Part shown: positions 9,545-58,615 of the stretch, one piece after another
Position numbering within the stretch: the stretch's first letter is position 1
Layout: each line of letters starts with the position of its first letter
DNA from: a bacterium
GTDB taxonomy: Bacteria > UBA8248
NCBI GenBank assembly: GCA_965213685.1
Contig: CBDBZY010000005.1
Coordinates: 1 to 64,000 of the forward strand
Length of the DNA stretch: 64,000 bases
Reading direction: 5' to 3'
Notes under the pieces: model-generated
The model's database searches: none
Told to the model about the DNA's origin: nothing
The model's input: the letters and a program-made list of their open reading frames with translations, nothing else
Made by a program: the position numbers and the translations under genes

Positions 9545-10708
9545 CTAGCGCGCCTCGAAAAACCTGCGCCTCGCGTGGTCCTCGCCGAACCCGCCGTTCA
9601 GGGCGTCGCGCAGCCAGTCCGCCACCATGAGGTAGAAATCGGGCAGGCGGCCGCCCATCGTGTGGGTTTCGTTCTCGTAGATCCACAGCTCCTTGGCGCC
9701 GCCCAGCAAATCGAAGAGCCGCTCGGCGTCCTCCAGCGGACACAACTCGTCAAACTCGCCCATCGCCAGAAGGGTGGGACACCGCACCTCGCCCGCGATG
9801 GGCGCGAGCGTCATCCGCTCGGCCATGGCGTCGAAGGCGTCCTCGTCGTAGGTGTTGGACATATACATGTAGTTCGCGCGGTAGGCGGGCTTTGCGCGCT
9901 GGAAAATATCCTCCTTCTGCAGATAGACGCCCATCGCGCCCACGCAGGCTTTCAGGCGCCGGTCGCAGGCCGCGGCGCGCGGCGCCCAGTAGCTGCCCAT
10001 GCTCCAGCCGTATAACCCGATTCTCCGGGCGTCCACCTCGGGGCGGGACTCCAGAAAATCGATGGCCGCCGCTCCCGCGCGCTCGAAATTGTCGAGCGTC
10101 ACCCAGTTCTCGCGCAGGTTGCTCTCGCCCTGGCCGGGGCCGTCGACGCTGAGCGTGGCGAGGCCGCGGCGCCGAAAATGGTTGTGGTAGGGATTCGGGA
10201 AAAACTCCTTGATGGTGTCCATCCCGGGAACGACGATGACGCAGGGCGCCCCCTCCACCCCCGGGACGGGCTGAAATATGCCGGGGATGGTCTTTCCTCC
10301 CTCGAAAGGAATTTCCACGCGCTCGACGGGCGCCTCGTCGAACAACTCGATGAATTTTTCATAGCAAGCGACGAGCCTGGCGTAGAGTTCGCGCTTTCGG
10401 ACCGTATTCTTGTGGATGACGCCGCAGGCGGGGCCGTAATACAAGGCGGCCCTGTGATAGAACTCGGCGGCCGATTCCCTGTGGCCGGCGGCCTCGGCCT
10501 CCCGCGCGAGCGCCTCCTCCTGGGCGGCGGTGCGCGCCCACTCCTTGGGCACGGCACCGGGCGTCCGTATGCGTTCGGTGGTTCTTCTCACGTCGGCGGG
10601 CCGGAAGCCCCACTCGACATACATCACCGAGCGAAAGGCGTAGACGTCGTGCACCTTGTAGAACTCTTCGGTCACCCACTGGTGACCCCGGCGGCTCCTG
10701 TCGCTCAT
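9545..10708 (-). CDS. Alpha/beta hydrolase (2,6-dihydroxypseudooxynicotine hydrolase-like)
   Basis: PGMDTIKE, DGPGQGES, GWSMGSY nucleophile elbow; start MSDRS overlaps the upstream stop. Confidence 0.85.
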   Translation of the reverse strand: MSDRSRRGHQWVTEEFYKVHDVYAFRSVMYVEWGFRPADVRRTTERIRTPGAVPKEWARTAAQEEALAREAEAAGHRESAAEFYHRAALYYGPACGVIHKNTVRKRELYARLVACYEKFIELFDEAPVERVEIPFEGGKTIPGIFQPVPGVEGAPCVIVVPGMDTIKEFFPNPYHNHFRRRGLATLSVDGPGQGESNLRENWVTLDNFERAGAAAIDFLESRPEVDARRIGLYGWSMGSYWAPRAAACDRRLKACVGAMGVYLQKEDIFQRAKPAYRANYMYMSNTYDEDAFDAMAERMTLAPIAGEVRCPTLLAMGEFDELCPLEDAERLFDLLGGAKELWIYENETHTMGGRLPDFYLMVADWLRDALNGGFGEDHARRRFFEAR

Positions 10709-11439
10709 CGGGAAACCTGGGCGCGTCCGGCCGGGGCCAGATGCGCGCGCATCAAGGCGCCGCCGGCGCTCCCCTGGCCCTCGAAGCCCGCCGTCCGGAG
10801 CGTGTGCCAGAGCGCCGTGGTGTTGCTCGTCAGCACGGGCTTTCCGAGCGAGGCCTCCAGCGCGTCGACCGCTTCGAGAGACCGGAAATTCGTGCAGCTG
10901 ACGAAGACGCCATCCGCCTCCGGGCAATCCACCTCGCGCGCAAGGGCCTCGGCGTTCTCCGGCGGCAAAAAGGCGGGGCACTCGACGTCCCGCCCCTTCT
11001 CGGCCACCACCTCGATCCCCCGATTCTTCAGGAACGCGCACAGCCTGTCGTTGAGCCATTGCGGATAGGGCGAGGCGAGCGCCACCCTGGCGACGCCCAT
11101 CTCGCCCATGGCCTCCGCGAGGGCGGTGGCGGTCGTCGTGGCGGGAATCCCCGTCCTCTGCCGGATCGCCTCGATGATGTCCGCATCCATGCCCGGGCGG
11201 ACGAAGCTGCCCCCCGTGCAGCCGAAACAAATCGCGTCCGGGCGCGCATGGGCGAGCAGATCGGCCAGCTCCGGCACCGCCTCTATCATGTGCAAAAGGG
11301 TTTCCTCCGCATCGTCCGTGTGGGCGATTCGGGTGAAATGAAGCGACACGCCCGCCGGCGCCATGCGCTGGCACTCATACTCCATCACCGTATTCCAGGA
11401 TGGAACGATGAAGCCCAACTTCTTCTTCCAGTCCGCCAT
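10705..11439 (-). CDS. Maleate cis-trans isomerase / Asp-Glu racemase family protein
   Basis: LGFIVPSWNTVME, FGCTGGS and SCTNF two-Cys motifs, PVLTSN. Confidence 0.88.
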   Translation of the reverse strand: MADWKKKLGFIVPSWNTVMEYECQRMAPAGVSLHFTRIAHTDDAEETLLHMIEAVPELADLLAHARPDAICFGCTGGSFVRPGMDADIIEAIRQRTGIPATTTATALAEAMGEMGVARVALASPYPQWLNDRLCAFLKNRGIEVVAEKGRDVECPAFLPPENAEALAREVDCPEADGVFVSCTNFRSLEAVDALEASLGKPVLTSNTTALWHTLRTAGFEGQGSAGGALMRAHLAPAGRAQVSR

Positions 11440-45109: not shown

Positions 45110-45805
45110 TCAGCCTCTCAGGACGATCCGCAGATCCTTGCGCAATTTCGCCAGCGAATCGGCGTCGTTGCTGTGGTAATAGCCCCGAATCTGGAACTTC
45201 CTGTCGATCAGCACGAACCGCGAGCTATGGGAGATCAGGACTTCCGGCGTCCCCGCATCCTCCGGATGCCCGGGGTGATGGGCGTGTGCGGAGGGGAGAA
45301 GGAACTGCGCGAACCGCGCGCCAGCGGACCCGGCGGGGCGCATGGCTTTTTGGGTCGCATAGCTCAGGCGGAACCCTTGGAGCACCAGGTTCCGGATTTC
45401 TTTCTCCTCGCCCGAGACAAAATACCAGCGCGACGTGTCGGCGCCGTATTTCCGGGCGTATTTCGCGAGAACCGCCCCCGTATCGTGCGCGGGGTCCGTG
45501 GTGATGGAGAGTTGCCGGAAGTCCGGCTCGCCGGAGAACTCCTCCTGAAGCCGCCGCATCTCGGCCGTTTGCAGAGGACACGTATCCTGGCACCGCGTGT
45601 AGATGAAATCCACGACCCACACCTTCCTCTCCAGATGCCCCCTCTCGAACTTGTGGCCCGACGCGTCGACGAGAGAAAATTCAAAGAGTCGCGAGTAGAC
45701 GGGCAAGGGCTGAAAAAGATGGCCGCGGAGCCAGCGGTAGCCGGGACCTACGGTCAAGGCGATCAGAAGACCCGCGGCCAGGAGCAGGCTCCAGCGGCGC
45801 GCCAT
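45110..45805 (-). CDS. SCO1/SenC family copper chaperone
   Basis: N-terminal TM, FIYTRCQDTCP (CxxxC), DPAHDT, HSSRFVLID. Confidence 0.9.
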   Translation of the reverse strand: MARRWSLLLAAGLLIALTVGPGYRWLRGHLFQPLPVYSRLFEFSLVDASGHKFERGHLERKVWVVDFIYTRCQDTCPLQTAEMRRLQEEFSGEPDFRQLSITTDPAHDTGAVLAKYARKYGADTSRWYFVSGEEKEIRNLVLQGFRLSYATQKAMRPAGSAGARFAQFLLPSAHAHHPGHPEDAGTPEVLISHSSRFVLIDRKFQIRGYYHSNDADSLAKLRKDLRIVLRG

Positions 45806-46097
45806 GTTCCCCTCCCCTCTTGTCCACCGAAAAAAGCTGTCCCGGAAGAAGCCCATCCCCTCGCCCCTCTCTCCGCGCCAAGCGCCCGAAAACCCGCACC
45901 CGCACCCATTTTGGCAAAACAGGGGCGTGCCCGCAAAACCTGTGCGGCGATCGGCGGGTTCCGGGAGACGGGAGACGGCATCGCCGCCGCGCGGTTGCGC
46001 AGCGCCCGCCCTCCTGCTTATACTCCCGCCTCTATCCGAAAACCATCCGGGAGCTTCCGGGCCGCCGGGAACAGAGATTAGAGAAGGAGAATCCGGA

Positions 46098-46610
46098 ATG
46101 AAAAGACATTTCACTGGAGTGCGCATTTGGGTCGCCGCGTGGGTTCTCATCTGCGCCTGCGCCGCGCAGCCGGCCGTTGCCGGCGAGAGCGGGAGCTTTG
46201 AACTCCAAGAAAGCTACGTCCACGATTACACCACGATGCAGCACGCGGGGACGACTATCACCGGCGGCCCACTGCGCGGGACGGGCGTCATCGCCAGGAG
46301 CAGCGGCGGCCTCTTCCCCGAGGGCGGGAGCTACGGCATCACCTGCCTGGTCTATGCGAAGAAATCCAAAAAGGGACTGGACCTCGAGGCCCCCTGCACG
46401 TTCACCGACTCCTCGGGCGATATGTTCTATCTCATGGCGATACGGCGCGCGGGCGTCATCCAGGTCGGCGGCGGCGGGCAGGGCGTTCAGCGGATCGTAG
46501 GCGGGACCGGCAAATACGCCGGCGTCACCGGCGCCTGCCCCTACGTGACCACCTACCTGCCGGACAAATGGCTCGTCTCGAAGGCGACCTGCAAGTGGCA
46601 AAAACCCTGA
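46098..46610 (+). CDS. Hypothetical secreted beta-rich protein (allene oxide cyclase-like barrel possible)
   Basis: AAGGAGA RBS, signal peptide, GGTGKYAGVTG motif. Confidence 0.75.
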   Translation: MKRHFTGVRIWVAAWVLICACAAQPAVAGESGSFELQESYVHDYTTMQHAGTTITGGPLRGTGVIARSSGGLFPEGGSYGITCLVYAKKSKKGLDLEAPCTFTDSSGDMFYLMAIRRAGVIQVGGGGQGVQRIVGGTGKYAGVTGACPYVTTYLPDKWLVSKATCKWQKP

Positions 46611-47017
46611 CCGGCGCGCCGGGGGCGATTCGCCAACCAGGAACACGGGCAGGAAGCGTCCCTGCGCACCCCCTGTAAAGCGAACCGCCGGCGGATGGCG
46701 ATACGCTTCTTCGGCGGTCGTCTCCGAAGCCTGCCGCTCACTGCCCGAAGGATGTCATCTGCGCGTTTTCACCCGACACGGACTCTCCCTGCCCAAGGGG
46801 CACTCCCGAGCGCGCTACGGCGGCTGTGCGAGGGTGCGAAACGCCAGGGCAGCCTGCTCCGCAGCCCCCGTTGGCACAACCAGATGGCGCGCGCCTGAGA
46901 CGAGTCGGGGGCGAGACGACCTCCCCGCATGCGCACAACGGCGCCTCCGCGCCTTCCCGACTGACGCACCTGCGCCTGCTCTCCGGGAGCGTGGCGATCG
47001 GGCGCATCGTCAAAAAG

Positions 47018-47066
47018 CCCCCCCCCCCCCCCCCGCGCTCGGGGGGGGGGGGGGGGGGGGGGGGGG
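47018..47066. repeat. C17-GCGCTC-G26 homopolymer pair
   Basis: Directly visible; self-complementary. Confidence 0.85.
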
Positions 47067-47146
47067 CGATCAGCGATAATGCGCCGGACGCAGCCCATCC
47101 GAGAGGAGAGGCGGCATCGTGAATGATGCGCTCGCCACCCGCCCGC

Positions 47147-47207
47147 GTCACCGTCGCAGAGGCGAGAGGAACGGACGCGCGCATCCGGGGCGGAGTGGCG
47201 CCGAGGC
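47147..47207 (+). repeat. 61-bp direct repeat, copy A
   Basis: 58/61 identical to 47737-47797; shared GATGCGCTCGCC upstream (47125-47136 / 47724-47735). Confidence 0.9.
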
Positions 47208-47297
47208 TCATCCGCCGACATTCAATGGCATTGTGCGGTCGGAGGTGAGACACTTTGAGATGCGATCTTCCCACACCACAAAAAAGAGGAAACCAAA

Positions 47298-47714
47298 ATG
47301 AAAACCCTGCTCGCTGTCTCTGTTTTACTGTTCGCGCTCCCCGCTGGTGCTGAAGCGGGGTATTACGACATAAAGAAAAGCCCATCCGAACCCACGCCCG
47401 TCATGATCTGTACTGTAGGTCATTGGTGTCGCATGATATGCCCTTCGGAAAAATTTCGCCACGCATTGAATGTAGAAGGAGGCGTCACGAAATTCAAGAA
47501 AGTGTCATGGTGGTATAACACGAAGGACAATGAGGTTAATATCCCAGGGGACTCGGCTGTTCCCAAGTTGAATAAATTAATCACTGATCGTGTCCACGAA
47601 TATATTAAGCACGCAATCAGCGAGATTGAGCCTAGATGCGGGGATTTCTGGGGAGAACTGGAGAAAAAGTTTCAGGAGATGAAGATGAAAGGGCTTCTTC
47701 CTTCACTGAAATAG
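47298..47714 (+). CDS. Hypothetical secreted protein, lower GC, flanked by direct repeats
   Basis: GAGGA RBS, signal peptide MKTLLAVSVLLFALPAGAEA, four Cys. Confidence 0.8.
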   Translation: MKTLLAVSVLLFALPAGAEAGYYDIKKSPSEPTPVMICTVGHWCRMICPSEKFRHALNVEGGVTKFKKVSWWYNTKDNEVNIPGDSAVPKLNKLITDRVHEYIKHAISEIEPRCGDFWGELEKKFQEMKMKGLLPSLK

Positions 47715-47736
47715 AGGGGCGCCGATGCGCTCGCCT

Positions 47737-47797
47737 GTCATCGTCGCAGAGGCGAGAGGAACGGACGCGCCCATCCGGGGCGGAGTGGCGCCCAGGC
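47737..47797 (+). repeat. 61-bp direct repeat, copy B
   Basis: Matches 47147-47207. Confidence 0.9.
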
Positions 47798-47902
47798 GTA
47801 AATCGCGCTCGCCGCCCGCTCCACCTCACTCGGGGTAATCTCCACCCAGTAGTGCGCGCGCCTTGCCGAGGGTCATCCCGACGCGGTAAGAGGTGTACAA
47901 AC

Positions 47903-50322
47903 GTTGTGGATTGCGGCCAGGCATCGATCAGCGATAATCCAAAAGACAATGCCTACTACGTCGATGGAGTTGTGGATTGCGGCCAGGCATCGATCAGCGA
48001 TAATACCAGGCTATGACCACTCCGACCTCCGACCGTTGTGGATTGCGGCCAGGCATCGATCAGCGATAATCGCAGTTGGTCGGCGGCCGTCGCGATCTGG
48101 GTTGTGGATTGCGGCCAGGCATCGATCAGCGATAATCGACATGGACTTCAGCCCGGCCGTATCTCCGTTGTGGATTGCGGCCAGGCATCGATCAGCGATA
48201 ATCTGGGGTGGCTTCGACGGCCAGAGGTCTATGTTGTGGATTGCGGCCAGGCATCGATCAGCGATAATGGAAAACCCCCGGGGTGATGGAGAACTATAGT
48301 TGTGGATTGCGGCCAGGCATCGATCAGCGATAATCATCCTCTCCCGTCTTCCTGCCGTGGAGGCGTTGTGGATTGCGGCCAGGCATCGATCAGCGATAAT
48401 CGAACCGGAGTGCCCGCAGGAGTGCGACGGTTGTGGATTGCGGCCAGGCCACGAACGACATCGATCAGCGATAATAAGCGGCCGATCGGCGGCGGGGCAG
48501 CACCACGTTGTGGATTGCGGCCAGGCATCGATCAGCGATAATTGAGCCGAGCAAGAAAGGTTGACCCTCTTCGTTGTGGATTGCGGCCAGGCATCGATCA
48601 GCGATAATCACCTCTTCGTTCGGACGCTATCATGTTCGGGTTGTGGATTGCGGCCAGGCATCGATCAGCGATAATCCCGCCTCAGCCAGCCCGGCCTCAG
48701 GCATGGGATCGCTGTCGTTGTGGATTGCGGCCAGGCATCGATCAGCGATAATACGATGTCTCCTTACCACACTCAAGTTGCGGCCAGGCATCGACGCAAG
48801 TGGTACGGGTTGTGGATTGCGGCCAGGCATCGATCAGCGATAATCGCGCCCTTTCGCGATCACAATCCCTGCAGGTTGTGGATTGCGGCCAGGCATCGAT
48901 CAGCGATAATCCGCATCGTGTTCGACATTGAGGCGCCTGGGTTGTGGATTGCGGCCAGGCATCGATCAGCGATAATCGCGCCCTTTCAGGCGATCATCAA
49001 TCCCTGCAGGTTGTGGATTGCGGCCAGGGCACGATCAGCGATAATTCTGGTGGCACGGGGCGGGTAATGCAGCACGTTGTGGATTGCGGCCAGGCATCGA
49101 TCAGCGATAATTGAACTTTTTTTCGGGAGGTCACCCGAGAAGTTGTGGATTGCGGCCAGGCATCGATCAGCGATAATTATAACGCTTGGCATCCGAGAAG
49201 AATGGGAGTTGTGGATTGCGGCCAGGCATCGATCAGCGATAATCTCCGGCAGGGCCATGGCGTTCACACTACTGTTGTGGATTGCGGCCAGGCATCGATC
49301 AGCGATAATTTTGAACTGAAGAGAGAGAAACCAGGCATCGTTGTGGATTGCGGCCAGGCATCGATCAGCGATAATGAGCGTTTCGTCGCGAAGAGCAGAC
49401 GAAACGTTGTGGATTGCGGCCAGGCATCGATCAGCGATAATCTCCGGCAGGGCCATGGCGTTCACACTACTGTTGTGGATTGCGGCCAGGCATCGATCAG
49501 CGATAATTTTGAACTGAAGAGAGAGAAACCAGGCATCGTTGTGGATTGCGGCCAGGCATCGATCAGCGATAATATAAAATCGGCGATTTCATAGGCGATG
49601 CCGTTGTGGATTGCGGCCAGGCATCGATCAGCGATAATACGACATTGAGGCGAGTGGGTTGTGGAGCGCCAGGCATCGATCAGCGATATCGCGCCCTTTC
49701 GCGTTGTGGATTGCGGCCAGGCATCGATCAGCGATAATACCTAGGGACTACCAGGTGGAGGGTAAGGGCGCTCGTTGTGGATTGCGGCCAGGCATCGATC
49801 AGCGATAATGACGCTTCTGGCGGACGCGCCTGTGGATGGGTTGTGGATTGCGGCCAGGCATCGATCAGCGATAATGGGCGCGCGCCGAACGCGCGCGCAC
49901 CGGGGGTTGTGGATTGCGGCCAGGCATCGATCAGCGATAATCGGAAGCCTCATCATAACGGCGTTCCTTAAGTTGTGGATTGCGGCCAGGCATCGATCAG
50001 CGATAATAAAGCGAGTATAGGGCGCACCTTCAGGGCGGTTGTGGATTGCGGCCAGGCATCGATCAGCGATAATGGAAGCGTTCATCATGACGGCCTGTGG
50101 ATGGAGTTGTGGATTGCGGCCAGGCATCGATCAGCGATAATGGAGGCGCGCGCGGCCAAAGAAGACGCAGGTTGGGATTGCGGCCAGGCATCGGCGTTGA
50201 CGACCTGATCGATGCGTTGTGGATTGCGGCCAGGCATCGATCAGCGATAATCCACACGCGCAGCTACCGAACTTCAGAAGAATCATGTTGTGGATTGCGG
50301 CCAGGCATCGATCAGCGATAAT
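47903..50322 (+). CRISPR. Type II-C CRISPR array, repeat GTTGTGGATTGCGGCCAGGCATCGATCAGCGATAAT (36 bp), about 37 repeats, mostly 30-bp spacers
   Basis: 33 exact copies plus 4 variant/degenerate by manual count; adjacent to cas2; + strand inferred from anti-repeat orientation. Confidence 0.98.
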
Positions 50323-50373
50323 GGATTCATCCCAAGCGTTTGAATCCATTCGGTTAAGGCTCCCGAGAGCAGA

Positions 50374-50703
50374 TCAGAACAGGGCGATCTGCTCGGGAGC
50401 CTTTTCTGTGGCCCCGCGAATCTTTCCGTGAAACACCTTCATCCGGGAAAACTGCTTGTCGGTAAAAAGAAGCAGCCGCACCTCGCCGTCGGGGGGCAGT
50501 GCGCCGTTCACCCGCTTCTCGTGCACCGCGGCGTTCTCCGCACTCGGGCAGTGGCGGGCGTAGACGGAATACTGGAGCATCGCGAAGCCGTCATCGAGCA
50601 GGGCGCCGCGAAACTCCTGGTAGGCCTTGCGGGCGGCCTTCGTGTCGGTCGGCAGGTCGAACATCACCATCAGCCACATGCTGCGCCAGCCGCCGAAGGT
50701 CAT
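50374..50703 (-). CDS. cas2: CRISPR-associated endoribonuclease Cas2
   Basis: MWLMVMFDLP, DGFAMLQYSVYAR, TDKQF typical of type II Cas2. Confidence 0.96.
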   Translation of the reverse strand: MTFGGWRSMWLMVMFDLPTDTKAARKAYQEFRGALLDDGFAMLQYSVYARHCPSAENAAVHEKRVNGALPPDGEVRLLLFTDKQFSRMKVFHGKIRGATEKAPEQIALF

Positions 50704-51596
50704 GGCCGGGGGATGTCCGCCTCCTTCTCCTCCCCGCAGAGGACGCGGCGGACGCCGGCGGCGTAGTACTGCAGGGCGGTGAGGAGGGGGTAGTTCCTTC
50801 CGCCGAACCGCACCTCGCCCGCCAGAATCTCGAGAAGCTCGCGCTTCTCCTCCCTCCCGAGCTCCGGCTCCTCCCCCCAGATGTCGGGGGCGTCCGCCAT
50901 GCGCCGCACCTGGCGATCCACCATCGGCCGCAACGGCTCCACCAGGTCGTCGGCGAGGCAGAAGCCGTCATACTGGTTGTGGTGGTGGAGGCCGAGAGCG
51001 GGGTGCAGACCCGCCGCGACAATCGCGCGGGCCGTCGCCGCGCGAATCAGCGAGTAGCCGTAGTTCAAAAGGCGGTTGACGCCCGGAAGCGCGCGATCCC
51101 GCCGGAAATCCGCCCCGAACAGCAGGGGCCAATACATCCGCGCGGCGCGCGCCTCGGCGTGGGCGGGCTCCTCCCCGCGCGCCGCCCGCCCGGCTATCGC
51201 CCGCAGGGGGCCGCCGTATTCGCCGAATGCGTCCAGGGCGTCCGCCTGGGCGAGAATCTTCGCGCGCACGATGGCCCGCCAGAGGCGGCCCTGCCTCCCG
51301 GGGGTCGCGGCGGCCTGCTCCCTGACGATGCGGCTGTGGAGGGTGTGCCCGTCCAGCGGGAGCAGGACGGAGGCGGGCAGGTGCTTCTCGTCGCACATCA
51401 CCACGGCGACGTTGTTCTTCATGCACTCGGCGAGCAGACCCTGGGAGGGGCGGATGGCGGGGTGATCCAGAATCAGGACGCCCAGATCCTCCACGGGGAG
51501 GGACTCGGCGGCGAACTTATCCCGCTCGACCTTGAGCTGCTTCCGGCTAAGCGAGAGGCGGGCGGGGCTTCCGATCTCGACGATTCGTTTGAGCAT
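50700..51596 (-). CDS. cas1: CRISPR-associated endonuclease Cas1 (type II)
   Basis: PVEDLG, CDEKHLP, EARAARMYW, NRLLNYGY, LADDLVEPLRP. Confidence 0.96.
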   Translation of the reverse strand: MLKRIVEIGSPARLSLSRKQLKVERDKFAAESLPVEDLGVLILDHPAIRPSQGLLAECMKNNVAVVMCDEKHLPASVLLPLDGHTLHSRIVREQAAATPGRQGRLWRAIVRAKILAQADALDAFGEYGGPLRAIAGRAARGEEPAHAEARAARMYWPLLFGADFRRDRALPGVNRLLNYGYSLIRAATARAIVAAGLHPALGLHHHNQYDGFCLADDLVEPLRPMVDRQVRRMADAPDIWGEEPELGREEKRELLEILAGEVRFGGRNYPLLTALQYYAAGVRRVLCGEEKEADIPRP

Positions 51597-54576
51597 GGGC
51601 GGTCTCCAGGTTTCCCAGGGGGTCGACGGACATCTTCGCCGCCCTGAGCGTGTGGGGGGTAGCAATCAACCGTGTTGCCTTGTCCTCTAGTGTCGTGCTC
51701 GTGTGCGCGCGCAGCGTGATTTTTACTTCCCCTGTTGTCCAAATTTTCGAAACCTTCTGCACGCGATAAAGGGCGCAACCGTTCTTCGGCTCATCGAGCT
51801 GGACCATGTCGTTGACAGAAAGCGACATGACGAACCGCCACCCCTCCGCGCACTCGCGCGAGACGATGGGCATCTTCTCGCGGCGGGCGCGCCGGGCGGC
51901 CTCCAGGGTCGTTATGACGCGGCCCTTTCGCCTGCCCGTCTGGACGTTCTCGATGATCTCGACGTGGTGGTTGTTCCCCAGGGCGTAATACTTGAAGGGT
52001 TCTTCCTCTCCATCCCGCGAGACCGAAAACAGCCCATCCGGACTAAGGTTCTCGGCGACGCGCACCTTCTTGATCCGCGTCCTCCCCGAACCTTTCCGGG
52101 AATGCGGGAGGGAAAGGGGGTTGCTCTCGGGGAAGGCGTCCTTGGCCTTCCAGCCGTGGGCCTCCATGCGCTCTTGCACGAGCTCCCGGACCCGGCCGTC
52201 CACGATTTTCTCCACCTGCTTCCTGCTGAGCAATTCGAGCGAAACCCTGCGGACGAAGCACGCCTCTCCCTCAAGAGAGATGCGCCCATACGCGGTTTCT
52301 TCATGAAGAGCGCCACTAATCTTCCTTCCGCTCGGCTGGTGGGAGACCACGATGGCCCGCACCTTCTGCCGCGCCTCGTCCTTGAATCCGGGCCAGGGCG
52401 ACCCGAGCGGAAAACCCCTCTTGCCCAGAACCGCGCGCTGCTCGGCGGAGAGTTTCGCTATGCCGTTGAAGAGCTTCCGGTTCGTGAGGGCGACGACCAG
52501 CGCGTCGATGGCGTGGTGGCGATGGTCGGCGCGGTTCTTCCCGATGTCGGAATCGACGGCGAGAATCGCGTTGAGCCTCCAGGAGCGGCGCAGGGCGGCG
52601 GTGGCCTGCCCGGTCGTCACCTCGATGTTCGCGCCCAACGCCTTGAGATATTTGCTCACCTCGCGGCTGATGTAGCGGGTGTCGTTGAGCTGACGCTCGA
52701 TGAACTTGTTCAGATCGAGCTCCTTCTGCTCGAAGCGCTTCCTCTTGGGATAGGGCATCTCCTTCATGGAGAAGACGCGCTGCCGGACTTGGTCGAACCG
52801 CCCGGCGTCGCCACCCCATGCCTCCCGGGGCGTCCGGTTCCCCTTCTCCCGGTTGGCGGAAGCCAGGGCGAGCACCTTGTTCATGTAGGAATCGTCCAGC
52901 GTCCTGCTGTAGGGGAGGATGTGATCCACCTCGAAGGCGGGGCTGAAAATATCATGCTGCCCGATGCTCCTGCCGGAATAGGGGCATACGCATTTCTGCT
53001 CCTTCCACAGGCGGTATCGGAGCCTGTTGCCGCCGTTGTCGGATTGCCCCTGCTCCGCCATCACCTCCCGTGCCTCATCGTTGAGGTCCCTGTTCTTCTT
53101 GTTCTGGACGTTCAGCCTTTTCTTCTGCTCCTTGCCGAGCTTCATGTCCCGGGCGAGCTCCACCCGGATGCGCGCCGGCTTCCCGTGTTTGCGGATGATG
53201 GCGTTCACCACCTTGCGCACCTCGTTGATCGCCTTCTGGACGATGGGGTTTCTCAGGTCGGGGGCGGGCGGCAGCACATCCTCCTCCGGCGTCTTTTTTT
53301 GATCCTCGCGCAGATAGCCCGCTCGCTGGCAGGCGTCGTGGTAGTTCTCCCCCCGCTCCAGGTACGGGCTGATCCTGCGAATCGCCCGCAGGGAGAGGTT
53401 GGCGTAGCCCGGCTGAAACTCCGTGTTCAGCAGCGCGTCCGCCTGCGCACTCGTGAGTTTCCAGTGCTCCGTCAACCGCTTCGAAAGGGTCTCTTCCTTG
53501 TGAATGCTGAACACATCCTCCAGAAAAGCGTCCCGCTCGCTATCGGACATGGCGTCCCATGTCTTTTTGGAGAGAATTTTCCGGATGTCGCAGAGCGTGC
53601 GCGCACCCAGCAGGTTCTTCTTCCCGCCCTCCTCGATATTGAAGGTTTCGCCGGAGTGCAGTCCCAACGCCTTGCGGACGCTGTTCCAGCCGAGCGTTTT
53701 CCGCTCCCGAAGAAGGTCCTTGATCTCCTCTCTTTCTTCTTGCCTGAGCGGACGATACCCGCCCGTCTGCGGGTCTCTGACCTCGAGATGGTTGACGTCC
53801 TGGAGTGCCCTGAACCACTGGGCCTCCGGGCGGCCCCAGGGACATCTCTTCCTGCCCGGCTCGAAGGTGCATTTTCCGACGAGCCCCTTCTGCAGTTTCA
53901 GGGGACGCTGGTGGAACAGAATCTTGCGGACGCGGTCGCGCGGGGCGTCACCCAGCAGATCGGGGCGAAACTCCGCCTGCTTCCGCCAGAGAAGGTCGAA
54001 TTCCTCCTCATACATTTTCCGCTCCGTCCGATGGTTCCTCTTCTTCGGCTTGTCCGCCAGATATGCGCCCAGCGTGCGCCTGCCGGATTTCTTGATATCC
54101 TCTCTCAGCCCCGCAATCTCCTGGAGAACCTTCCCGTCTTCCTTTTTCTTCTCCTTGGAATCGCGCACCTTGCGGTTGCTGAGAAACCCCCGCCGCTGGT
54201 TCAGATGGAAGATGGCACGGCCCAGCTCATGCGGGGGAATTTCGCTCTTCAGCCCCCGCTTGCGAATCTCATAGGGGTCGGCCTCGTGGAACAGCCTCTG
54301 CCGCTCCCCGCGCTCCTCGGGCAGGAGGCTCGAGCGGATGAGTTCGTTCCGGAGGGTTTCGCGCCGCATCTTCCGCCTGGCAAGCTGACGGCGGCGGCCC
54401 CGCGCGGCGCGCCTCTCGTGGTTCCTGGGCGTTTTCGTCTTCCTGTCCACCATCTCCTGAAACACCCGGACGCCGATAGCCTCGAGGCGCTGCGGTTCTT
54501 CCGCCTCGTTCTCCTCGATGAGCGCCCAGCCGATGGAGTTGGGGCCAAGGTCGAGTCCGAGGGTCAAATCGGGCAT
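51547..54576 (-). CDS. cas9: Type II-C Cas9, 1009 aa
   Basis: RuvC-I LGLDLGPNSIGW, Arg-rich bridge helix, RuvC-II VELARD, HNH VDHILPYSRTLDDSYMNKVL..N..KGN, RuvC-III HHAIDA; no csn2/cas4. Confidence 0.98.
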   Translation of the reverse strand: MPDLTLGLDLGPNSIGWALIEENEAEEPQRLEAIGVRVFQEMVDRKTKTPRNHERRAARGRRRQLARRKMRRETLRNELIRSSLLPEERGERQRLFHEADPYEIRKRGLKSEIPPHELGRAIFHLNQRRGFLSNRKVRDSKEKKKEDGKVLQEIAGLREDIKKSGRRTLGAYLADKPKKRNHRTERKMYEEEFDLLWRKQAEFRPDLLGDAPRDRVRKILFHQRPLKLQKGLVGKCTFEPGRKRCPWGRPEAQWFRALQDVNHLEVRDPQTGGYRPLRQEEREEIKDLLRERKTLGWNSVRKALGLHSGETFNIEEGGKKNLLGARTLCDIRKILSKKTWDAMSDSERDAFLEDVFSIHKEETLSKRLTEHWKLTSAQADALLNTEFQPGYANLSLRAIRRISPYLERGENYHDACQRAGYLREDQKKTPEEDVLPPAPDLRNPIVQKAINEVRKVVNAIIRKHGKPARIRVELARDMKLGKEQKKRLNVQNKKNRDLNDEAREVMAEQGQSDNGGNRLRYRLWKEQKCVCPYSGRSIGQHDIFSPAFEVDHILPYSRTLDDSYMNKVLALASANREKGNRTPREAWGGDAGRFDQVRQRVFSMKEMPYPKRKRFEQKELDLNKFIERQLNDTRYISREVSKYLKALGANIEVTTGQATAALRRSWRLNAILAVDSDIGKNRADHRHHAIDALVVALTNRKLFNGIAKLSAEQRAVLGKRGFPLGSPWPGFKDEARQKVRAIVVSHQPSGRKISGALHEETAYGRISLEGEACFVRRVSLELLSRKQVEKIVDGRVRELVQERMEAHGWKAKDAFPESNPLSLPHSRKGSGRTRIKKVRVAENLSPDGLFSVSRDGEEEPFKYYALGNNHHVEIIENVQTGRRKGRVITTLEAARRARREKMPIVSRECAEGWRFVMSLSVNDMVQLDEPKNGCALYRVQKVSKIWTTGEVKITLRAHTSTTLEDKATRLIATPHTLRAAKMSVDPLGNLETAHAQTNRRDRKPRPPLA

Positions 54577-54592: not shown

Positions 54593-54628
54593 TTGACACC
54601 ATGAGCGAGAGGGGGTAAAAGTATAGCA
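54593..54628. promoter_or_regulatory. Overlapping divergent sigma70-like promoters for tracrRNA (+) and cas9 (-)
   Basis: + strand TTGACA-N17-TAAAAG; - strand extended -10 TGCTATACT at 54628-54620. Confidence 0.6.
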
Positions 54629-54783
54629 GTTTTCGCTGATCGATGCCTAGTTGCTTTTTTCGCGTTTCACAACAAGAAGCGAACAAGCTTCGGAGGCAAG
54701 TCCCCGAACGGGGAAACGAAACCACCCCTCACTTTTGGGGGGAAACCAAAACCCCGGGCGCTCCGGCTCCCGGGGTTTTGTTA
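54629..54783 (+). ncRNA. tracrRNA
   Basis: Anti-repeat TCGCTGATCGATGCCT...TTCACAAC (54629-54673), then hairpins GAAGC/GCTTC and TCCCC/GGGGA, and a terminator hairpin. Confidence 0.9.
54747..54783. terminator. Intrinsic terminator shared by tracrRNA and convergent egtB
   Basis: CAAAACCCCGGG...CCCGGGGTTTTG 12-bp stem. Confidence 0.8.
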
Positions 54784-54827
54784 TGGATGAATGGATTCCA
54801 TCATCCCGCAGGGGGCGGGGAGTTTCC

Positions 54828-56102
54828 CTACCGCGCGAGCCGGATTCCGCTGAACTGCCATCGCGCCTCGGGAGGAAAGAAGTTTCGGTAGGTGGGGCGG
54901 ACGTGGTTTCGGCTCGTGGCGCAGGAGCCGCCGCGCAGGACGTATTGGTTGCACATGAACTTGCCGTTGTACTCGCCGATGGCCCCGGGCGCGGGACGAT
55001 AGCCCGGGTAGGCGCCGTAGGCACTCGACGTCCACTCCCATACGTCGCCATACATCTGGGCGGGCGCGTCCGCGGGCCCGGCGTCGAGCGCCAGGGGGTG
55101 AAAGCGCGCGCTGTCGGCGAAATTTCCGGCGCGCGTGGCGCCTCCCGCCGCCGTCTCCCATTCGGCCTCGGTCGGCAGCCTCGCCCCCGCCCAGCGGGCG
55201 TAGGCGTCGGCCTCGAAGTAGCTCACGTGGCACACCGGCGCGCGCAGGTCTATCGGCGCGAGACCGGAGAGGGTGAAGTGCCTCCAGGCGCCGGCCGCTC
55301 GCACCCAGTAAAGTGGTGCCCGCCAACCCTCCGCGCAAACCCGGGCCCAGCCCAGCGAGAGCCAGTGCTCGGGCCGCTCGTAGCCGCCATCGGCCATGAA
55401 GGCCAGAAACTCCCCGTTGGTGACGAGCCGATCCGCCATCTCCCAGGCTTCGCAGAAGACGCGATGTCTGGGCGATTCGTTGTCGAAGGCGAAGCCCGCG
55501 CCATCGTGCCCCATCCAGCGAACGCCCTCCGGATAGCCCCGCCAGCCCGGGGGCTTCACGCTCCCGTTTTGCGGGCTTCCCTCCTGCTGAGGCGGCGCCT
55601 CGCGATAGACCGGATGAAGCGGGTTCACGGAGAGCACGTGCTTGATGTCGGTAAGCATGAGCTCCTGGTGCTGCTGCTCGTGGTGGAGGCCGATTTCGAG
55701 GAGGGGGGCGAGGCGGGCCAGCTGCGCCTCGCCCGCTCCGGCCAGCAGCTTTTCCACCTGCGCGTCCACGTGGCGGCGATAGGCGTACACCTCATCGAGT
55801 GCGGGCCGGGAGACGTGGCCCCGCAGATGCCTGGGAAACTGCTCCCCCACGCCGTTGTAGTAGGAGTTGAACAGGACGATGAAATCCGGATGAAACGGCT
55901 CGTAGCCGGCGAGGGCCTCCCGCAGGATGAAGGTCTCGAAGAACCAGGTGATGTGCGCCAGGTGCCAGCGGGTGGGGCTCACGTCCGGCATCGACTGGAT
56001 GACGGTGTCCTCCGGTGCTAGGGGTGCCGCCAACTCCAGGCTGAAGCGGCGGACGTCCAGAAACCGCGTCGTCATATCATCGACAAGCCGGGCGTTCGAC
56101 AT
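54828..56102 (-). CDS. egtB: Ergothioneine biosynthesis sulfoxide synthase
   Basis: [32 protein letters not shown]-like C-terminal [20 protein letters not shown]. Confidence 0.92.
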
Positions 56103-57109
56103 GGCGCATCCTCCATCGTATTCCGCCCCTCGGGGTCTGCGGTGAGATACTGCACGCTGAACCAGTCCGCCTCGTCCGTCCACACGCGCTCCACGCGCAT
56201 CCCCCCGCGCGCGGCCAGGGTGCGGAAACCCTCGAGCGTGTATTTGTGAGAGTTCTCGCTGTGGATGCTCTCGCCCTCGGCGAAGGTGAACTCCGCATCC
56301 CCCACCCGCACCTTCTGCGCCTTCCGGCTCACGAGGCGCATCTCGACGCGGCCCCGCTCCGCGTCGTAGGACGCCTGGTGGCGAAACTGATCGAGCGCAA
56401 AATCCGCCCCCAGCTCCTCGTTGATGCGCCGCAGGAGGTTGAGGTTGAAATCCCGCGTCACCTCCTCCTTGTCGTTGTAGGCCACCTCGATGATGGGCGC
56501 CGCCTTCTGCAGGTCCACGCCCACCAGAAGACCGCCCCCGGCCCCCACCGTCCGCGCGACGTTCGCCAGAAACGCCACCGCCTCCTCGTCCGTGAAGTTT
56601 CCGATGGTGGAGCCCGGAAAATAGGCGGCCACGCGCCCATAGGCCGCCGCCACCGGCGGCAGCGCGAACGGCCGGGTGAAGTCCGCGCACACGGGCGCGA
56701 CCTCGAGGGCCGCAAAATCCGCCGCGAGCCCCCGCGCCGCGCCGCGCAGGTGCTTCTTCGATATGTCCACCGGAACGTAGGCGGCGGGCCGTTCGAGATG
56801 CGCGAGCAGGGCGCGTATCTTGCGGTCCGAGCCGCTGCCGTATTCGACGATCAGCGCCTCGGGCCCGATAGCCTCCGCCATCTCGGCCGCGGCCTCCTCC
56901 ATGATGCGAAGCTCCGTCCGGGTGAGGTAGTATTCGTCCAGCTCGCAGATGCGCTCGAAGAGCCGCGAGCCGCGCTCATCGTAGAAATACTTGCAGGGCA
57001 GGGTCTTGGCGGGAGCGCCGAGGCCCTCGAGCACATCCGCCCGAAAGTCCCGGAGCCCGGGCCTGTAGTCGTAGAGCTTGATCTCGCGCGTCGCCCCGGT
57101 GCCCGCCAC
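56072..57109 (-). CDS. egtD: L-histidine N-alpha-methyltransferase
   Basis: [44 protein letters not shown]. Confidence 0.95.
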
Positions 57110-57424: not shown

Positions 57425-58615
57425 ATGAACGTCAACGGCAACGTCCTCATCATCGCGTCGAGCCACGCGGTGAACTCCGTCTACAACCGGATGCTGACGC
57501 CCATCCTTCCGCTCATCATGGCCGACTTCGGCTTGGGCTACGCGCAGACGGGACTCATCGCCTCCGTCTACGCCCTCTCGAACAGCCTGTTCCAGCTGCC
57601 CATCTCCTTTCTGGGCGATTTCACCGGAAAAACCCGCCTCATCCTGGGACTCTCCCTGTTCTCCAGCGCCCTGCCCGCTTATTTCTACGGCTATTCGGCC
57701 ACATACGCCGCCCTGCTCGCCCTCGTCTTCCTCAGCGGCCTCGGCGGTTCGGCGTATCACCCCTCGGCGGTGTCGATGATCGCCCGGGAGAGTCCCGGGC
57801 ACCGCGGCCTCGCCATGGGACTCTTCAAGGCGGGGGGAGATTTCGGCAGCATCCTGACGCCGGCGGCCATGAGCTGGCTCACCGTCCACCTTGCGAGCTG
57901 GCGCGCCGCATCGCAGTATTTCGTGTTGCCGGGCGTCGCCTGCGCCCTCCTCATCTGGCTGCGGTTCCAGGATGTGCCCGGCGAACGGGCGCCGATGGCG
58001 AGGGCGGCAAAATCCACGCTCGGCGCACTGCTGGGCGACAGGCTCCTGGTGCGGATGACCCTGCTCTCCTCCTGCCGGGTGATGGGCCTGCGGGGCATCA
58101 TGACGTTCCTGCCGCTGCTGCTGGCCCAGGGGCTGGGGTTGGGCACCATCGCGGTCGGCTGGACGCTCACCGGCTATTTCCTCGTCGGCACGGCCTGCGC
58201 CATCCTCTGGGGAAAATACGCGAACGGGAAGAACGAGACGCGCTTCATCCTCCTCATGATGGCGACGAGCGCACTCTCCCTCGCGTTCCTGTCGCGCGCC
58301 GAATCCTTCGTCGTCTTCCTGGGCCTTCTGGGGTTGCTGGGCGCGAGCCTGAATCCCTCCCAAAGCCTCATGCTGACGATCACCACCGGGGCGATCCCGG
58401 AGAAAAACCGCACGAGCGCCATCGGCCTCATGTACACGGCGAACGAGGCGGCGTCCGTCGCGTCGCCCTTCCTGGGGGGACTCATCGCCCAGGCGGCGGG
58501 ACTGCGGGAATCGTTCCTCTTCTACTCCCTCCTCTGCCTGGTCGCCACCGGACTCGCCTGGCGCATCCACGCCGAGCAAAAAAGGCGCGCGCGGGCGGCG
58601 GGCGCCGCTCCCTAG
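57425..58615 (+). CDS. MFS transporter (Fsr-like)
   Basis: About 12 hydrophobic segments; LTPILP, AYHP, RGLAMGLF..GG. Confidence 0.88.
   Translation: MNVNGNVLIIASSHAVNSVYNRMLTPILPLIMADFGLGYAQTGLIASVYALSNSLFQLPISFLGDFTGKTRLILGLSLFSSALPAYFYGYSATYAALLALVFLSGLGGSAYHPSAVSMIARESPGHRGLAMGLFKAGGDFGSILTPAAMSWLTVHLASWRAASQYFVLPGVACALLIWLRFQDVPGERAPMARAAKSTLGALLGDRLLVRMTLLSSCRVMGLRGIMTFLPLLLAQGLGLGTIAVGWTLTGYFLVGTACAILWGKYANGKNETRFILLMMATSALSLAFLSRAESFVVFLGLLGLLGASLNPSQSLMLTITTGAIPEKNRTSAIGLMYTANEAASVASPFLGGLIAQAAGLRESFLFYSLLCLVATGLAWRIHAEQKRRARAAGAAP

Follow-up and report, generated by a model that had tools for sequence, protein, structure and literature searches.

A gene-bearing unit in the oldest spacer position of a type II-C array

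The window analysed here is a 64,000-nt stretch of bacterial DNA (GenBank assembly GCA_965213685.1, contig CBDBZY010000005.1, positions 1 to 64,000 of the forward strand; below, contig C5 of the 7.97-Mb assembly G000, which comprises contigs C1-C71). It carries a CRISPR array together with cas9, cas1 and cas2 and, at the end of the array away from these genes, an 822-bp unit that contains a gene for a small protein, p138, and is bounded on its outer side by the last 14 nt of a CRISPR repeat (Table 1). A first-pass annotation, made from the sequence alone, had described the unit as a giant spacer, that is, as foreign DNA captured between repeats. The layout is real and unusual, and the most probable explanation is that recombination left a scar where the old end of a type II-C array had decayed.

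The outer border of the unit is the 14-mer CGATCAGCGATAAT on the plus strand, which is identical to the last 14 nt of the 36-nt repeat GTTGTGGATTGCGGCCAGGCATCGATCAGCGATAAT and lies in the same orientation. It occurs 36 times in the window (35 times within the array and once as the stump at 47067), where dinucleotide shuffles give an expectation of 0.01. The first intact repeat to the right of the unit (47903-47938) is a perfect copy, and the unit starts and ends exactly where repeats end and begin. In these respects the first-pass annotation was accurate, as it was in noticing a secreted-protein gene of lower guanine-cytosine (GC) content in between: the GC content of the p138 open reading frame (ORF) is 0.46, compared with 0.62 in the flanks, and its N-terminus, MKTLLAVSVLLFALPAGAEA, resembles a Sec signal peptide when judged by eye, without a predictor. 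p138 is the only accepted gene of the unit; two other overlapping ORFs have no Pfam match, and no integrase or transposase is encoded within the 822 bp. The annotation had also placed the tail of a minus-strand gene against the first intact repeat. We discounted this tail, because an open stretch of 24 codons is unremarkable in DNA of 67% GC and because it has neither a Pfam match (scanned as the 105-residue ORF 47632-47949) nor a paralog in the genome.

Two features of the region had been overlooked. The p138 gene is bracketed by direct repeats, 95% identical between 47147-47207 and 47737-47797, which by eye reach back to 47125 and 47724, respectively (span 61-83 nt), and which sit inside the unit rather than at its ends. 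Their folding is no better than that of shuffled sequences (z from -0.4 to -1.1), they hold no structured attC-like site as in integron cassettes, and no integrase was found among the ORFs scanned. The other feature is a homopolymer hairpin that directly abuts the stump and is composed of C17 (47018-47034) and G26 (47041-47066); read along the minus strand it runs into CTTTTTG, which makes it terminator-like. An Rfam scan over 45800-48000 returned only sub-threshold microRNA matches on this hairpin. No inverted repeats pair the two ends of the unit: of the 21 pairs found, 20 lie in or extend from the hairpin and one is internal. By self-comparison the two ends are unrelated and are not duplicates of each other. 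The unit matched nothing in phage and plasmid collections searched by BLAST, and in 60 relatives (query 46620-47902) matches were confined to the homopolymer zone; none of the 60 carries the unit as ordinary chromosome. As a separate observation, the hairpin is flanked within 46998-47088 by a 10-nt imperfect palindrome, TCGGGCGCAT / ATGCGCCGGA (9/10), the right arm of which straddles the junction between stump and unit, possibly by chance.

The locus belongs to type II-C: Cas9 has RuvC and HNH domains, cas1 and cas2 are the only other cas genes (no csn2, no cas4), and a trans-activating CRISPR RNA (tracrRNA) with an anti-repeat is encoded. The best complement of the repeat in the array flanks lies at 54629 on the plus strand (score 26/36), so the sense of the CRISPR RNAs (crRNAs) is the plus strand. 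A leader-like flank beside cas2, which ends 52 nt from the last repeat, is kept in six other genomes of the genus (G002, G007, G009, G013, G015 and G017) and in a contig of sequencing run X1, and the sequences before the first repeat differ among the genomes that share it. With the crRNAs on the plus strand and the conserved flank beside cas2, the array's oldest, leader-distal end is the one at 47903, and the distal position given in the first-pass annotation holds. The probable tracrRNA is divergent from cas9, with a sigma-70-like promoter and a terminator of its own; pairing of its anti-repeat involves the 3' 22 nt of the repeat as well as the 5' GTTGTG, around an internal loop.

The inter-repeat units measure 29-32 nt in 24 of 32 cases, the other eight hold broken repeats, and two spacers are duplicated. 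None of the 32 matches the 822-bp unit, and outside the array the genome gives only two partial matches of 18-19 nt. The irregular members of the array are a repeat with a 10-nt insert (48430-48475), one with three mismatches (49010-49045), partial repeats within long spacers (48753-48808, 49639-49702 and 50142-50215) and a duplicated two-spacer block (49244-49339 = 49442-49537).

Table 1. Features of the locus, with positions in the window
Feature	Position	Strand	Basis
Gene A, SCO1/SenC family	45110..45805	-	PF02630, E 5.8e-23; syntenic anchor in 22/22 congeners searched
Gene B, 170 residues, signal-peptide-like N-terminus, no known family	46098..46610	+	Pfam/NCBIfam/PHROGs; synteny
C17-GCGCTC-G26 homopolymer hairpin, length uncertain	47018..47066	.	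sequence, relatives
Stump of old terminal CRISPR repeat (last 14 nt), holds -10-like GATAAT	47067..47080	+	sequence match; position homology with G009 first repeat
822-bp unit in oldest spacer position	47081..47902	+	sequence; comparison with relatives
Left direct-repeat copy	47125..47207	+	no significant fold, no Rfam family
p138, 138-residue secreted-type orphan, ICxxGHWCRxxCP motif, five-paralog family	47298..47714	+	genome, relatives and profile searches
Right direct-repeat copy	47724..47797	+	self-comparison
Alleged gene tail, 24 codons, unsupported	47826..47900	-	Pfam scan, paralog search
CRISPR array, 33 perfect 36-nt repeats and broken copies, crRNA sense +	47903..50322	+	repeat search, complementarity scan
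Conserved flank past last repeat, hairpin and terminator-like hairpin; probable leader for spacer uptake	50323..50400	+	conservation among relatives
cas2	50374..50703	-	PF09827, E 1.7e-16
cas1	50700..51665	-	PF01867, E 9.1e-26
cas9 (RuvC_III, HNH_4, Cas9 alpha-helical lobe)	51547..54576	-	PF18541, PF13395, PF18470
Probable tracrRNA; anti-repeat 54629-54650 after TTGACA-N17-TAAAAG; ends in hairpin and T-run	54625..54795	+	complementarity scan; promoter and terminator by eye

The p138 family and the terminal units of related arrays

Four further paralogs of p138 are encoded on three other high-GC contigs of G000. All five proteins share the signal peptide and the cysteine-containing motif, and all five genes lie below their flanks in GC content (0.50-0.56 against 0.63-0.66 for the other four). 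The low GC content of p138 is therefore a family trait and not evidence of recent capture, and the five paralogs, like the empty phage and plasmid searches, argue against the foreign origin supposed in the first-pass annotation. The family gave nothing at E ≤ 0.001 in the 60 relatives and one marginal match at E 0.009. A profile search against 1.84 billion representatives returned three proteins, namely one of the G000 paralogs, a genuine relative of 116 residues and a repetitive 958-residue protein that we regard as spurious. p138 has no Pfam, NCBIfam or PHROG family, and a word-indexed protein search was also empty; its best score in the ESM Atlas, 0.76, was uninformative, and an AlphaFold2 model from the alignment of the five paralogs was too poor for a fold search (mean predicted local distance difference test score 46.8). 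Judging by these comparisons, p138 is a small, cysteine-bearing protein, probably secreted, that belongs to a lineage-specific family, and its gene is, on paralogy, a member of a narrow family native to the G000 genome.

The distal end could be read in seven arrays of the genus (G000, G002, G007, G009, G013, G015 and G017), which were scanned for repeat remnants (at least 22-24 matches out of 36, or at least 10 exact terminal nt) and inspected by eye. The layout of a decayed terminal repeat, a unit of 0.4-2.5 kb and an intact array was found in two of the six other arrays. In G007, a degenerate repeat (27/36) lies 59 nt from gene A and is followed by a 2482-nt unit with an alanine-rich ORF of 655 residues; in G017, a split repeat (14/15 in the 5' part, then 32 nt, then 11 exact 3' nt) precedes a 389-nt unit with an ORF of 92 residues. 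Both ORFs begin with a signal peptide, as does the 138-residue ORF behind the 14-nt stump of G000. In G015 there are two decayed half-repeats and a duplicated 27-nt flank, with no gene-bearing unit and no ORF, and in G002, G009 and G013 neither a unit with an ORF nor any remnant was detected within 8.3, 2.0 and 5.4 kb, respectively.

The ORFs of the three units are all in the crRNA sense, and all three remnants keep the 3' end of the repeat with its -10-like hexamer. Among the congeners, the repeats end in GATAAT, TAAAAT, TATAAT or TACAAT, with A2 and T6 constant. The three units have no sequence in common. Neither the unit ORFs of G007 and G017 nor gene B belong to a Pfam, NCBIfam or PHROGs family, and the 92-residue protein was found only in G017 among 23 genomes of the genus. 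The idea in the first-pass annotation that the array acts as a gene-capture site stands in part: there is a spacer-like slot between the remnant and the first intact repeat, and the layout recurs in two of six other arrays, but the capture mechanism is unsupported.

A G/C run, or a pair of such runs, is also found near the terminal repeat in relatives. In G009, C15-GCGCCTCGC-GGGG stands 9 nt before the first repeat, which is followed by an ordinary spacer; in G013 a distance of 35 nt separates a G13 run from the first repeat downstream, and in G017 the sequence C6-GC-G13 precedes the terminal repeat by about 20 nt. Because relatives carry these runs, and because of the position of the G009 element in particular, we take the 14-mer, on positional homology, as the remnant of the array's old terminal repeat, and the join as correctly assembled.

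Surroundings of the cassette and homopolymers in the assembly

Synteny in the relatives was established by tblastx with filters, since unfiltered searches at low thresholds were swamped by GC-rich noise. The position of the CRISPR cassette relative to genes A and B varies among G000, G007, G009 and G001. Gene B, which is present in few congeners, lies to the left of the array in G000 and beyond cas9 in G007 and G001. The order in G007 is gene A, degenerate repeat, 2.48 kb, array, cas2-cas1-cas9 and gene B; in G009 it is gene A, about 450 nt with a C-run, array and cas genes. G019 has genes A and B and, about 2.5 kb further on, the gene for a major facilitator superfamily (MFS) transporter that starts near 57434 in the window, with no CRISPR locus. 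In G002, G013 and G015 the cassette is elsewhere in the genome. There is no tRNA gene near the cassette. Comparison across these genomes shows repeated movement, loss or replacement of the cassette within the genus. G001 (L021 8793-9120) retains no more of cas9 than the upstream region and the first ~340 nt, placed directly before two tandem copies of gene B; this site is a decayed CRISPR-Cas locus.

In G007 and G013, a second degenerate repeat with a leader-like copy lies beside cas2, about 0.6-0.7 kb from the leader of the working array. Such double copies of repeat plus leader are expected if a new array had been inserted, flanks included, among the remnants of an older one. They point to array turnover by recombination in the genus, and for this reason we prefer the first of the two routes of arrival given below. 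The intervening 0.6-0.7 kb (L017 reverse complement 10107-10730 in G007; L024 5616-6330 in G013) is an element with inverted TCACTTCTTGTA ends, coding for a peptide of about 36 residues that is conserved and very basic; the orientation of the element is opposite in the two genomes, and the G013 copy adjoins a tRNA-like sequence.

Beyond cas9 and the tracrRNA, the window carries on the minus strand (54828-57109) an EgtB-like gene (DinB_2 and FGE-sulfatase domains) and an EgtD-like gene (histidine methyltransferase), a pair that corresponds to ergothioneine synthesis, and then the MFS transporter gene. Solitary repeats with 2-3 mismatches occur far from arrays in G013 (C1:732869-732904 and C2:480311-480346) and in G023 (C69:8353-8388), where a 13-nt repeat start comes 19 nt after the solitary repeat. 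Neither the exact repeat nor its degenerate form had a match in JGI metagenome contigs (0 each). In run X1, from another study, we found the identical repeat and a copy of gene B that is about 94% identical, with no cover over 46636-47867; the repeats in this contig are on the strand opposite to gene B, which may be either a real rearrangement or a collapse at k=31.

The G000 assembly is mixed. Forty-nine contigs (3.07 Mb, GC at least 0.60) are bacterial and fit the 3-4.6 Mb of the congeners, and 22 contigs (4.9 Mb, GC 0.33-0.54) are microsatellite-rich and look like misbinned host (eukaryote) DNA. The 49 G/C homopolymers of the high-GC contigs measure 12-44 nt (e.g. C63:20926-20939, C31:99221-99237 and C36:99104-99147). 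Coding signal surrounds some of them, and two of the genes concerned are DNA-methylase-like, with the motifs DPPFN and FLGGFAGAEGKRGGEFYT; phase-variable tracts in DNA methylase genes are known from other bacteria. In a crude frame test based on GC content at third codon positions, 8 of the 13 runs picked as lying inside coding signal shift the frame. At the site of one run, C3:93233 (G21), relatives have a G-rich ribosome-binding stretch between two conserved genes instead; for two other sites no orthologous region was found in the five genomes searched. Either these runs are contingency tracts that undergo phase variation, or the sequencing of this data set produced them as an artefact.

Origin and persistence of the unit

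We assign a probability of roughly 55% to the reading in which the 822-bp unit is lineage-specific chromosomal DNA that was placed by recombination at the decayed leader-distal end of the array, and not by spacer uptake. By the route that we slightly prefer, a sister strain would have been the source of the working array, which would have brought along its own upstream flank (the 822 bp); the incoming DNA would have been joined to the resident locus through homology on the cas side and, within the oldest spacer unit, by an illegitimate junction. In the alternative route, which is nearly as probable, the gene-bearing piece would have been inserted directly into the oldest spacer. The duplicated spacers and broken repeats indicate that recombination between repeats is active in the array; by either route, decay of the outer repeat would prevent its recombination with the other repeats, and the unit would persist by escaping deletion. 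By analogy with type II-C of Neisseria, the -10-like hexamer of the stump would probably still give rise to plus-strand transcripts that enter the unit and have the same sense as the gene.

Several points weigh against this reading. No sister strain with the state before the arrival of the array was found, and junctions exactly at repeat borders are what an integrase would also give. The predicted promoter of the stump was not recovered by a sigma-70 scan of 46500-48100, which requires a -35 element and found no promoter at all. Recurrence amounts to three of seven arrays in one genus, the signal peptides were judged by eye, and the G017 contig, with Ns and low-complexity runs near the remnant, is the weakest case. 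The direct junction of G run and repeat comes from the window assembly only, and no contig bridging 47008-47075, a stretch masked by the tool, was found in any of three Logan data sets described below. There is also a suspicious excess of G/C runs of at least 12 nt (49 in the bacterial and 323 in the eukaryote-like contigs, with 0 and 39 A/T runs, respectively), and G16 runs are absent from 15 of 22 congeners. The homopolymer lengths may thus be inflated, and the stump may be less truncated than read.

These last points bear on the possibility of an assembly artefact, in which a misjoin or miscall at the homopolymers would have misplaced the left flank, or G calls would have partly overwritten a full repeat. 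The stretch is held by three runs (X2-X4) from three samples of one study, for which Logan contigs (k=31) were examined. In each run, one contig covers 46300-47007 and ends 24-55 letters later, and a second begins 22-35 letters before 47076, passes through the whole unit into the repeat at 47903 and then jumps to the post-array flank, which is the collapse of the array expected at k=31. The gap between the two contigs would fit an artefact, as would the excess of G/C runs in bacterial and eukaryote-like contigs alike, their patchy distribution among relatives, the broken repeats within the array and the runs that shift the frame. However, the depth is similar on both sides of the homopolymers in all three samples (4.6/7.2, 17.9/17.6 and 24.3/20.7), and the contigs end at the same place in each, unlike random chimeras; the misjoin that the first-pass annotation had named as a possibility was not shown, but neither was a bridging contig found. 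G009, G013 and G017 have a G/C run or pair just upstream of the terminal repeat, and some runs fall in the methylase-like genes, where real phase-variable tracts occur in other bacteria. Moreover, even with a full repeat the 822-bp unit would stand between two repeats, and each right-hand contig extends across stump and unit to 47903. We regard an artefact as quite unlikely. Very unlikely is an oversized spacer, for which Cas1-Cas2 would have integrated an 822-bp prespacer, with decay of the outer repeat later. The coincidence of both unit borders with repeat borders, the intact cas1 and cas2 genes and the similar giant units of G007 and G017 would agree with it. Cas1-Cas2 integration, in excerpts of a report on type II-C (PMC12477760), occurs at the leader-proximal repeat and duplicates the whole repeat, whereas the unit is at the leader-distal end, where it would be among the first acquisitions of the array, and the assembly has only 14 of 36 nt of the repeat on its left side, not two complete repeats. 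The outer repeat is likewise degenerate in G007 and split in G017, while the 33 inner repeats are identical. The length of 822 nt also contrasts with the 29-32 nt of regular spacers, the eight exceptional units offering no clean long spacer; no protospacer source was found in phages or plasmids, the closest sequences being paralogs in the same genome, and the p138 gene is paralogous to native genes. For these reasons the oversized integration invoked in the first-pass annotation was set aside. Its other suggestion, spacer-protospacer recombination, predicts an insert that has one and the same spacer at either end and was rejected, as the ends are not duplicates and none of the 32 inter-repeat units matches.

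The unit could also be the remnant of a mobile element that targets repeats or spacers, either a prophage with the repeat as its attachment site (attB) or a Tn7-like transposon, reduced to its cargo; we consider this highly improbable. There are precedents for such targeting. According to excerpts of one report (bioRxiv 10.1101/2020.10.09.333658), the prophage PhiAP1.1 integrates into repeats of the type II-A system of Streptococcus pyogenes, in natural strains mostly at a single degenerate terminal repeat, so that, as here, large DNA lies inside an array; excerpts of another (PMC11837452) describe Tn7-like transposons of Cyanobacteria that insert at a fixed position in spacer regions and are thought to spare array function. 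Within the genus, the small element with inverted ends beside the degenerate repeat at the other end of the G007 and G013 arrays points the same way. In contrast, PhiAP1.1 splits the repeat and is an entire prophage, complete with attP and integrase, and as far as these excerpts go the Tn7-like elements have element ends as well as genes for transposition. The unit, at 822 bp, encodes no integrase, transposase or other recombinase, has its junction at or after the 3' border of the repeat and lacks inverted repeats at its ends. p138 has no family match, no phage match was found, and the units of the three genomes share no sequence.

Decayed terminal repeats are a textbook feature of CRISPR arrays, and insertions of prophages and transposons into arrays are known. 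That the outermost, leader-distal repeat is unlike the others and shows where the array ends is stated in excerpts of bioRxiv 10.1101/2020.10.09.333658 (citing Jansen 2002), and the array of the window conforms to this. It departs from this picture in that 822 bp and a gene come between the stump and the next repeat, compared with a usual spacer of about 30 nt, and in that the stump is cut to 14 nt next to a homopolymer hairpin. The closest functional parallel is the type II-C system of Neisseria meningitidis, which, in excerpts of PMC12477760, shares cas9-cas1-cas2 and transcription of the array towards the cas genes; its leader adjoins the last repeat, R26, where new spacers enter, and its crRNAs start from promoters embedded in the repeats, at the 6th nt of each spacer. 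The -10-like hexamers at the repeat ends of the window would be the counterpart of these promoters, their activity being predicted by analogy. These excerpts make no mention of a gene-bearing terminal unit, and in a limited literature check we found no description of a recombinase-free, gene-bearing unit in the oldest spacer slot.

Beyond the recombination scar, we considered a co-option in this genus, whose members are sponge-associated bacteria: the decayed terminal repeat would have come to serve as a promoter, and the oldest slot as a site where strain-specific genes for secreted proteins can land. This is unlikely in our estimate, and draws on three of seven arrays, each with a different orphan signal-peptide gene in the crRNA sense. 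Under co-option, since every repeat would have its own promoter, a gene placed after the terminal repeat could be transcribed without harm to the downstream crRNAs, and the decayed outer repeat would shield the lodged gene from deletion.

What lends the locus wider interest is the recurrence in three species of one genus, each with its own orphan secreted-protein gene in the crRNA sense. If the unit is a mere rearrangement scar, it calls for caution in the annotation of arrays and of 'giant spacers' in metagenome-assembled genomes. In the genus, the oldest slot may offer new genes for secreted proteins a tolerated position, perhaps with a promoter supplied. If the pattern is real, it would show that strains exchange entire arrays, flanks included, and the old end of type II-C arrays would be a tolerated, perhaps expressed, niche for new genes in host-associated bacteria.

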